Below the pieces are notes generated by a model that was given only the letters and a program-made list of their open reading frames with translations, was not told the origin of the DNA and made no database searches. Source: Candidatus Latescibacterota bacterium (lineage in GTDB: Bacteria > Latescibacterota > UBA2968 > UBA8231). Taken from it: a stretch of 64,000 bases of DNA. The stretch lies in contig OY730476.1 in NCBI GenBank assembly GCA_963422735.1, positions 3,840,001 through 3,904,000 of the forward strand, given 5' to 3'. Positions 650-766 of this stretch are shown piece by piece (position 1 is the first letter of the stretch; every line of letters begins with the position of its first letter). The position numbers and the translations under genes are program-made.

Positions 650-766
650 ATGAAGCTCGAAATCGTATCGAAGCCTTTTGATGGTTATATGTCGCCGGCA
701 GCGAAAGGCGGCGGCGGCGGTGGCGGCGGCTGTTGCTGCTGCTGCATTATCATATTTTTCTGTTGA
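650..766 (+). CDS. RiPP (linear azole peptide/TOMM) precursor, 38 aa, MKLEIVSKPFDGYMSPAAKGGGGGGGGCCCCCIIIFFC
   Basis: Strong RBS, ATG at 650, TGA at 764-766, and a Cys-rich C-terminal core. It lies directly upstream of the E1-like, SagB and YcaO genes. The ORF track's 521 start is probably too long. Confidence 0.9.
   Translation: MKLEIVSKPFDGYMSPAAKGGGGGGGGCCCCCIIIFFC

Follow-up and report, generated by a model that had tools for sequence, protein, structure and literature searches.

We analysed a 64,000-nucleotide stretch of the genome of a Candidatus Latescibacterota bacterium (contig OY730476.1 of assembly GCA_963422735.1, positions 3,840,001 to 3,904,000 of the forward strand; hereafter, the window), close to the beginning of which a short open reading frame (ORF 650-766, forward strand) encodes a peptide of 38 residues. 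Its translation, MKLEIVSKPFDGYMSPAAKGGGGGGGGCCCCCIIIFFC, is followed by a stop codon and consists of an N-terminal segment, MKLEIVSKPFDGYMSPAAK, then eight Gly, five Cys and the hydrophobic sequence IIIFFC. An initial annotation made from the sequence alone had drawn attention to these homopolymer blocks, and both the blocks and their codons were confirmed by translation and codon reading: four GGC, one GGT and three GGC for the Gly run, TGT and four TGC for the Cys run, ATT, ATC and ATA for the Ile, TTT and TTC for the Phe, TGT for the last Cys and TGA as the stop. The ORF is followed by nine co-oriented genes, beginning 252 nt downstream with that of an E1-like protein (C protein) and including those of a flavin mononucleotide (FMN)-dependent dehydrogenase and a YcaO protein (D protein). 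As detailed below, it is very probably the translated precursor gene (A gene) of a linear azole peptide (LAP) pathway, of the thiazole/oxazole-modified microcin (TOMM) kind, and belongs to a new, genus-wide precursor family.

Six-frame translation of the whole genome (4,953,052 bases, 9.9 million residues) yielded seven runs of at least five Cys and three runs of at least eight Gly, but a run of at least four Gly abutting one of at least three Cys occurred only once, in ORF 650-766, and this uniqueness of the block pair excludes a chance origin of the ORF. Across the family described below, the variable columns of leader codons 2-17 numbered seven, six and 16 (of 16) at the first, second and third codon positions, respectively, a third-position variation showing that the ORF is protein-coding. 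MKL is the sole start common to all 34 family members (33 with ATG and one, in the locus L050, with GTG), and 14 of the 34 have an in-frame stop at most ten codons upstream of it, which rules out a longer form in those members. Longer ORFs, from GTG 521 or from ATG 620 (the latter in frame ten codons upstream of ATG 650 and without a Shine-Dalgarno (SD) sequence of its own), were considered and rejected, MKL being the only shared start. The region 542-1000, with its G8-C5 blocks, was recovered without a single difference in contigs of two more sequencing runs from separate studies (X6 record 5 and X8 record 11). No run-length variant of G8-C5 appeared in the contigs of four sequencing runs, although contigs lose rare variants. 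No RNA run was listed as containing this sequence; the contigs of one run guessed to be RNA (X11) span only positions 300-681 and 1145-1447 and are uninformative on expression. In run X6 we also observed short contigs restricted to the SD sequence and leader (632-696), with two to six differences and a word depth of 228-700 versus ~10 in the flanks; they are probably leader copies from more abundant related species in the sample.

The initial annotation had proposed a search for the leader in genomes carrying related YcaO proteins, and a search of this type defined a family with a common leader and a variable core. It comprises 34 homologous precursors from the window and 20 other loci (21 sources, all from uncultured Latescibacterota). 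The regular expression applied to these loci gave 35 precursors, one of which, a 12-residue ORF without Cys, was dropped; two loci (L051 and L055) are truncated at their upstream side. A profile search in a collection of 5.8 billion proteins provided 10 further members, all of them unnamed or labelled 'hypothetical'. Several records (L046, L049, L050, L055 and P0007) carry inconsistent phylum labels (Gemmatimonadota, Poribacteria, Gammaproteobacteria), and several of these fall in the window's own genus by genome search.

All 34 members have the same four-part layout, with a 17-residue leader, a linker, a Cys tract and a tail. The family consensus of the leader is MKLRIVSKPFDGYMSPA. In 25 aligned leaders, M1, K2, L3, S7, F10 and P16 were invariant, I5, V6, G12, Y13 and A17 were conserved in at least 90% of the sequences, and mean column identity reached 80%; position 14 is Met or Ile family-wide (Met in 30 of the 34 members). 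Conservation ends abruptly at Ala17, the next position being occupied by A, R, K, M, F, V or I, so that the conserved leader is shorter than the ~19 residues initially annotated and residues 18-19 (AK) are part of the variable linker. Linkers range from 4 to 22 residues and can be Gly-rich, acidic and Ser/Thr-rich, or basic. The Cys tract, found in every member, is 5-12 residues long with 5-8 Cys; some tracts are pure, and others also contain His, Asn, Ser, Thr or, in a single case, Val. His is interspersed with Cys in 12 of the 34 cores (e.g., CCCCCHCHCC). Tails have 1-10 residues. The nearest analogue of the window peptide, P0009 from the protein collection, reads K-G8-C6-IVILVC and likewise ends in Cys. 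In three related species the order of the blocks is reversed (Cys tract, then six or seven Gly, then two residues), so the Gly run need not be an N-terminal spacer in every member. Eleven sources carry one precursor copy, seven carry two and three carry three, and each of the tandem copies has its own SD sequence.

The distribution of this family is closely tied to that of the YcaO gene. In the initial sample, 16 of 24 genomes of the genus had YcaO, and it was missing from all 16 genomes that belong to the other families of the class. Searched against 168 genomes of the phylum, a leader profile of 20 columns produced 36 matches in 22 genomes (G000, 20 of the 30 in the genus, and one of the 15 from a genus that falls in another family), precisely the same 22 that were matched by the YcaO profile. 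The leader was therefore found in 22 of 22 YcaO-bearing genomes and in 0 of 146 YcaO-less ones, and each match lay a few kb upstream of YcaO. Such strict co-occurrence upheld the proposal that the ORF is the precursor of the YcaO cluster; homologous clusters devoid of the peptide, which would have spoken against that proposal, were looked for across the 168 genomes and every YcaO-bearing genome was found to carry the leader. The position of the precursor directly before the C gene is fixed, and synteny of the nine genes after it holds in each of the 20 full loci, among them L050, which has a YcaO of 62% identity and different flanking genes. As a separate observation, in L044 the precursor and the C gene are separated by the inserted gene of a 380-aa DDE transposase (3051-4193; PF01609, E = 7.6e-18), which places the precursor 1.2 kb from its enzymes.

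In a maximum-likelihood tree of 20 YcaO proteins, the window grouped with L036 and L057 (support values of 99/97), and these three share a Gly-rich linker, a C5 tract and a hydrophobic tail. Each of two other core types, 'Cys then Gly7' and His-rich, corresponded to a YcaO clade with 100/100 support. Core types thus track YcaO clades, which indicates that the cores diversify along with the enzymes. A metagenome scan with distant YcaO sequences (alignment A6) retrieved a single locus, the close relative L057, and YcaO homologues at 45-58% identity exist (P0069-P0085). Altogether, the features characteristic of a LAP precursor are found in ORF 650-766 and its surroundings: co-oriented C and D genes, a conserved leader followed by a variable Cys-containing core, co-occurrence with the enzymes, and the combination of an azoline-type YcaO with an FMN dehydrogenase.

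The downstream genes encode what such a pathway would require, together with several less usual components (Table 1). The C protein also had a sequence match to MccB. The 271-aa protein encoded after it has no Pfam family and is syntenic in the 20 full loci. The YcaO protein ends with GPVPFP, with prolines that are invariant in the family; a PxPxP C-terminus marks azoline-forming YcaO proteins. Its sequence matches in the PDB were the azoline-forming heterocyclases MusD, LynD and TruD, and the 102 YcaO homologues found, down to 23% identity, are all labelled just 'YcaO-like' or with a generic automatic term; none is called SagD. Among the cluster proteins, the SagH permease model reached only 16.9 versus a cutoff of 450. 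In the TonB-dependent receptor, the barrel and the CarboxypepD_reg domain are clear and the Plug domain is marginal (E = 0.066, 14 bits, under the cutoff). The free tetratricopeptide repeat (TPR) protein shares 42% identity over 227 aa (E = 6e-61) with the TPR domain of the ATP-binding cassette (ABC) ATPase and, by sequence, is a paralogue of this C-terminal domain. In L045 (12100-13012), and with equal spacing in L046 and L053, two extra genes stand between the ABC ATPase and the receptor; these extra genes of the clade with His-rich cores are a 201-aa ORF without Pfam family and, directly before the receptor, a 115-aa winged-helix regulator (HTH_34, with weak PadR/ArsR-type matches).

Table 1. 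Features of the precursor locus (positions in the window; aa, amino acids; UTR, untranslated region).
Feature	Position	Strand	Basis or remark
Sigma-54-type -24/-12 element (TGGCACGTTTTTCGC)	481..495	+	TGGCAC-N5-TCGC
Conserved 5' UTR	505..634	+	13 genus loci
Shine-Dalgarno sequence AAGGAGG	635..641	+	8 nt 5' of ATG; GGAG-type, with equal spacing, before 34/34 family members
Leader, residues 1-17 (MKLEIVSKPFDGYMSPA)	650..700	+	Family alignment
Linker, residues 18-27 (AK + Gly8)	701..730	+	Variable across the family
Cys tract, residues 28-32 (Cys5)	731..745	+	Predicted thiazole site, given the C/D/B enzymes encoded nearby
Hydrophobic tail IIIFFC, residues 33-38, and TGA stop	746..766	+	Translation
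Hairpin without U tract, between precursor and C gene	872..909	+	14-bp stem, 12/12 loci
C protein (E1-like/ThiF, SagC-type), 370 aa	1019..2131	+	PF00899 and TIGR03603 matches
271-aa protein, weakly SagB-like	2156..2971	+	TIGR03605 E = 6.5e-05, under cutoff
SagB-type FMN dehydrogenase, 330 aa	2975..3967	+	TIGR03605 135.1 bits (cutoff 78.4), PF00881
ABC-2 permease, 260 aa	3960..4742	+	PF01061
YcaO cyclodehydratase (D protein), 487 aa	4752..6215	+	PF02624 160 bits
CPBP/CaaX-type intramembrane protease, 242 aa, candidate leader peptidase	6232..6960	+	PF02517
ABC ATPase fused to TPR domain, 562 aa	6948..8636	+	PF00005 and TPR families
TonB-dependent receptor with CarboxypepD_reg N-terminal domain, 744 aa	8643..10877	+	Domain matches
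Free TPR protein, 261 aa	10899..11684	+	TPR match

The region upstream of the precursor appeared to contain its own regulatory signals. Two dinucleotides of the sigma-54-type element, GG (482-483) and GC (494-495), were invariant in all 14 aligned upstream regions, including that of the distant L050, and the genome encodes a sigma-54 DNA-binding domain (rpoN), so this element presumably acts as the promoter. Conservation of the 5' UTR exceeds that of the enzyme genes, and parts of this UTR recur before the second and third precursor copies. None of its 32 predicted base pairs showed compensatory changes, which leaves an RNA structure unsupported for this region, and no Rfam match was found in positions 1-1100 of the window. 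By contrast, five of the 27 pairs predicted in the hairpin region downstream of the precursor showed compensatory changes. This hairpin may be an attenuator or a stabiliser, and it fits the usual arrangement in clusters for peptides that are ribosomally synthesised and then modified post-translationally (RiPPs), in which the precursor mRNA exceeds the enzyme mRNA.

Among the known systems closest to this cluster is that of streptolysin S, to whose precursor SagA the peptide had been likened in the initial annotation. The gene set is, in outline, streptolysin-S-like. The likeness is valid as an analogy and does not extend to family membership, the peptide and its relatives staying under the cutoff of the SagA model (TIGR03602). 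According to the part of PMC4603692 available to us, clusters of the cytolysin group combine a discrete cyclodehydratase, a dehydrogenase, an ABC transporter and a CaaX-like protease with a core made of Gly followed by at least ten heterocyclisable residues. In both systems a short precursor carries a contiguous Cys run behind its leader, and C and D are discrete proteins accompanied by SagB, a CaaX-type protease and an ABC exporter; a Phe in the leader, followed at the fourth position by a hydrophobic residue, and the presence of two precursors in some clusters are also shared. The excerpted PMC2676033 describes recognition of a leader motif, FXXXB, by SagC. However, the window core consists of Gly, five Cys and then Ile, without the long polar C-terminal part of SagA, and the longest heterocyclisable stretch among the relatives (11 residues, TSS followed by C8) is not preceded by Gly. 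The cluster described here also differs in its occurrence in a diderm host of the Latescibacterota instead of Firmicutes or Spirochaetes, its putative sigma-54-type promoter, its fusion of ABC ATPase and TPR domain, and the TonB-dependent receptor and TPR protein that follow.

Two other systems share the association of Gly and heterocyclisable residues. The faecalisins are predicted TOMMs of Enterococcus faecalis with a Gly linker and Cys repeat design and an uncharacterised product, as outlined in the accessible portion of PMC4603692, the only source using this name in the relevant sense among the matches listed. By description only, their design resembles the G8-C5 of the window's clade, whereas in other clades of the family the linker is acidic or basic, or the blocks stand in reverse order. 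Further likenesses are the discrete C and D proteins, the ABC transporters and the two precursors of some clusters (same portion of PMC4603692). On the other hand, the faecalisin D protein is described there as nearest to that of microcin B17, whereas the nearest curated model here is the SagD family; their precursors are near-identical, unlike this hypervariable family, and both the phylum and the cell envelope differ. Microcin B17 likewise has a polyglycine between leader and first heterocycle, a diderm host and the same logic of E1-like protein, YcaO and dehydrogenase. Processing requires the polyglycine linker of its precursor McbA and declines when this linker is shortened; in natural variants up to six of the Gly are missing, as stated in the part of PMC6722960 at hand. 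The core of McbA differs in having Gly-Ser-Cys-type sites that become mono- and bis-heterocycles, rather than a Cys homopolymer; McbA is also longer, with residues numbered to at least 69, and its product targets gyrase, and the same part of PMC6722960 describes no CaaX protease, receptor or TPR genes.

No known precursor family matched the window peptide in the Pfam and NCBIfam models, and among the precursors Pfam returned nothing relevant. The NCBIfam models for NHLP, Nif11, heterocycloanthracin and listeriolysin S matched none of 33 members at a meaningful level (a single listeriolysin S match had E = 0.55). The best feature score in the ESM Atlas, 0.80, was to unnamed clusters and thus uninformative. 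In the literature, supplementary tables being outside the scope of the search, we found no description specific to this precursor family, nor is it described in the accessible text of section 9 of PMC9426513. Clusters labelled 'LAP' or RiPP by antiSMASH are listed for sponge-associated Latescibacterota metagenome-assembled genomes (MAGs), without description of a precursor in the parts of PMC12993501 and PMC11832590 that were available. Since the literature offers only such listings, we therefore class the system as a new LAP subfamily, an instance of an established kind of system in which the leader family is new and the accessory genes are unusual.

The gene content and these analogies allow a biosynthetic route to be proposed. 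The leader, through F10 and M/I14 in an FXXXB-like arrangement, would dock on the N-terminal peptide-binding part of the C protein. The Gly8 linker, being flexible, could let the Cys5 tract reach the active site of YcaO, as proposed by analogy with the polyglycine of microcin B17. The YcaO protein would then cyclodehydrate Cys28-32, and possibly also Cys38, to thiazolines in an ATP-dependent reaction, and the SagB flavoprotein would oxidise these thiazolines to thiazoles. Finally, the CPBP protease may cut off the leader and the ABC-2 transporter may export what would be a small, rigid and very hydrophobic polythiazole peptide. As for the activity of this product, membrane-directed antagonism or cytolysis seems the most likely, as a guess.

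Several points weigh against this interpretation of the locus. The window peptide has only five contiguous Cys, in contrast with the at least ten heterocyclisable residues given for the cytolysin group in the available text of PMC4603692. TIGR03602 did not match the window peptide and touched 10 of 33 relatives at E-values up to 1, the best of those rescanned scoring 19.1 bits versus a cutoff of 35; these alignments cover only the Cys tract. The match to FXXXB is loose, given that the prevailing Met at position 14 is not a branched-chain residue. The role of Gly8 as a spacer is weakened by linkers of only four residues and by the clade with the Gly run after the Cys tract. In a profile comparison only, YcaO scored 208.3 bits with TIGR03604, slightly under the SagD-family cutoff of 219.25. 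The structural model of the C protein was of low confidence (mean pLDDT of 58, the predicted local distance difference test); its best Foldseek matches were MccB and PaaA with TM-scores of 0.3-0.4 and, for these reasons, the model does no more than suggest a leader-binding domain. A complex prediction for the C protein (alignment A7) and the precursor (alignment A8) gave a median score of 0.28 versus a mark of 0.32, without controls, and speaks neither for nor against the interaction. Lastly, the YcaO frame is broken in L052 and L054 (genomes G142 and G144; gene at ~8001-9500), by one TAA and a frame change in G142 and by a split at residues 323/334 in G144. The precursor is intact in both, and the interrupted genes may reflect decay of the pathway in some lineages or an assembly error.

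The homopolymer blocks themselves had been attributed to protein-level selection rather than slippage, owing to the variation of codons inside them. Part of this view stands, as the Cys tract is conserved family-wide and therefore under selection, but the runs are near-pure triplet repeats of varying length, which implies that slippage and selection both act. In the window, GGC makes up seven of the eight codons of the Gly run, compared with 26% of Gly codons in the seven enzyme genes of the cluster (binomial p = 0.0006; such codon-bias p-values overstate the significance because the sequences are related). In the family, runs of at least four Gly comprised 21 GGC and 16 GGT among 37 codons, with no GGA or GGG, two codons that together account for 48% of Gly codons in the enzyme genes. 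Similarly, TGC represented 137 of 168 codons (82%) in the Cys runs versus 60% in the enzymes, with TGT at 19 of 52 edge positions and at only 11 of 110 interior ones, and several members have perfect (TGC)7-8 tracts. Run lengths vary among relatives, from C4 to C9 and from G4 to G8, with pairs such as C8 and C9, or C5 and C6 at G8. The homopolymer look of these peptides can thus be explained by selection for contiguous Cys combined with slippage in (GGC)n and (TGC)n, the core diversifying fast between species. One member of the protein collection, P0003, loses its reading frame inside the Gly run (CCCCC GGGG and, up to 67 aa, unrelated residues), either by a slippage frameshift in a (GGN)n tract or by a sequencing error.

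Within the LAP interpretation, the fate of the Gly run can be viewed in two ways. If cleavage took place near Ala17 or Lys19, Gly8 would stay in the product, which would then be Gly8-pentathiazole-IIIFFC, flexible in its N-terminal half and both rigid and hydrophobic in its C-terminal half. The conservation stops at Ala17, as one would expect at a site of recognition or cleavage, although no conserved cleavage-site residue follows it. In the clade of L044, L048, L049 and L054, the C-terminal Gly run must remain in the product unless it is trimmed, and most of the polyglycine of microcin B17 stays in the mature peptide according to the accessible part of PMC6722960. However, putative cleavage directly before the Cys tract has been proposed for streptolysin-type precursors (available part of PMC2676033), and the acidic, Ser/Thr-rich linkers of sister clades resemble disposable extensions of the leader. 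We consider retention of Gly8 a tentative option, plausible enough but somewhat more doubtful than not.

The presence of the receptor at the end of the cluster raises a different question, namely whether the product binds metal. A polythiazole or thiol metallophore might be exported, loaded with metal and re-imported through the adjacent receptor, and the paralogous TPR domains could take care of it at either side of the inner membrane. Several observations are compatible with this idea: the receptor and TPR protein follow the biosynthetic genes in all 20 full loci, even in L050; His-Cys cores occur in 12 of the 34 members; the clade with His-rich cores has the additional winged-helix regulator, with its weak ArsR-type match, before the receptor; and the free TPR protein is, by its sequence, paralogous to the TPR domain of the ABC ATPase. 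Methanobactin clusters, moreover, carry a dedicated TonB-dependent transporter and also combine an adjacent receptor of this kind with heterocycle and sulfur chemistry derived from Cys, although with other enzymes (no YcaO or SagB), and the receptor of the present family stands beside an unrelated cassette as well. Indeed, three YcaO-less genomes of the same genus have ~8.4 kb of other DNA between a conserved 610-aa gene and a DEAD-box helicase gene (L058 2379-10489, L059 1340-8974 and L060 about 4400-12700). In genome G006, this cassette encodes a transglutaminase/GT4 protein, a GT2-TPR protein, a stand-alone C39 peptidase, a 101-aa ORF, a CPBP protease and a Yip1 protein. Two of these three genomes (G006 and G145) retain the receptor and TPR genes, at 73-85% identity, after the cassette.

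This persistence in YcaO-less genomes indicates that the receptor and TPR genes are not specific to the thiazole peptide, which lowers the probability of a metallophore without removing it. In addition, the G+C content of these two genes is host-like (0.53-0.59, for a genome value of 0.595; 0.53-0.64 when their flanks are included), whereas the biosynthetic genes are AT-rich (0.42-0.49), as seen when positions 1-8000 of the window are compared with 8001-20000; the AT-richness suggests a foreign origin or a special constraint. The Plug domain of the receptor is marginal, and the window core has no His and a strongly hydrophobic tail. Finally, with a SagB dehydrogenase in the cluster the thiazoles should be aromatic, and aromatic thiazoles bind metals less strongly than thiols or thiazolines do. 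A re-imported, metal-binding product seems therefore unlikely. The alternative cassettes make the locus look like a swap point for peptide-secretion cassettes. An extended version of this idea would be a cassette-swap site in a symbiont lineage, where a hypervariable, slippage-tuned polythiazole family alternates with a C39/glycosyltransferase cassette and, in its boldest form, produces metal-binding or signalling peptides re-imported by the receptor; we regard this as quite improbable. It is extremely improbable that the ORF encodes a Cys-rich micropeptide that stays unmodified, resembling a metallothionein or serving as a redox buffer, or is a chance triplet-repeat frame, in either case no substrate of the neighbouring enzymes, since the near-pure (GGC)n and (TGC)n tracts, the few other Cys runs that off-frame repeat readings give in the genome and the lack of matching precursor families are outweighed by the strict co-occurrence with YcaO, the fixed position directly upstream of the C gene, the third-position variation of the leader, the SD sequence present in 34 of 34 members, the core types that follow the YcaO phylogeny and the two or three tandem copies, each with its own SD sequence, of several species.

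As the precursor of a LAP pathway, ORF 650-766 represents a new family for which Pfam and NCBIfam have no model and all database copies are unnamed; the records retrieved for Latescibacterota, a candidate phylum, are all MAGs. Its short, near-invariant leader and its simple cores, made of 5 to 9 Cys and a few residues, make it a compact test bed for how contiguous Cys are processed by YcaO, E1-like protein and dehydrogenase, which is unresolved for streptolysin S, and for the spacer length that these enzymes need. The family also points to triplet-repeat tracts within the core peptide as a source of natural-product diversity between close species. If the receptor and TPR module handles the product, LAP chemistry would be linked to outer-membrane transport in diderm bacteria and, in the quite improbable event that it is a metal-binding or signalling peptide re-imported through the receptor, this would be the first metallophore system based on a YcaO-derived polythiazole, or polythiazole-His, peptide.

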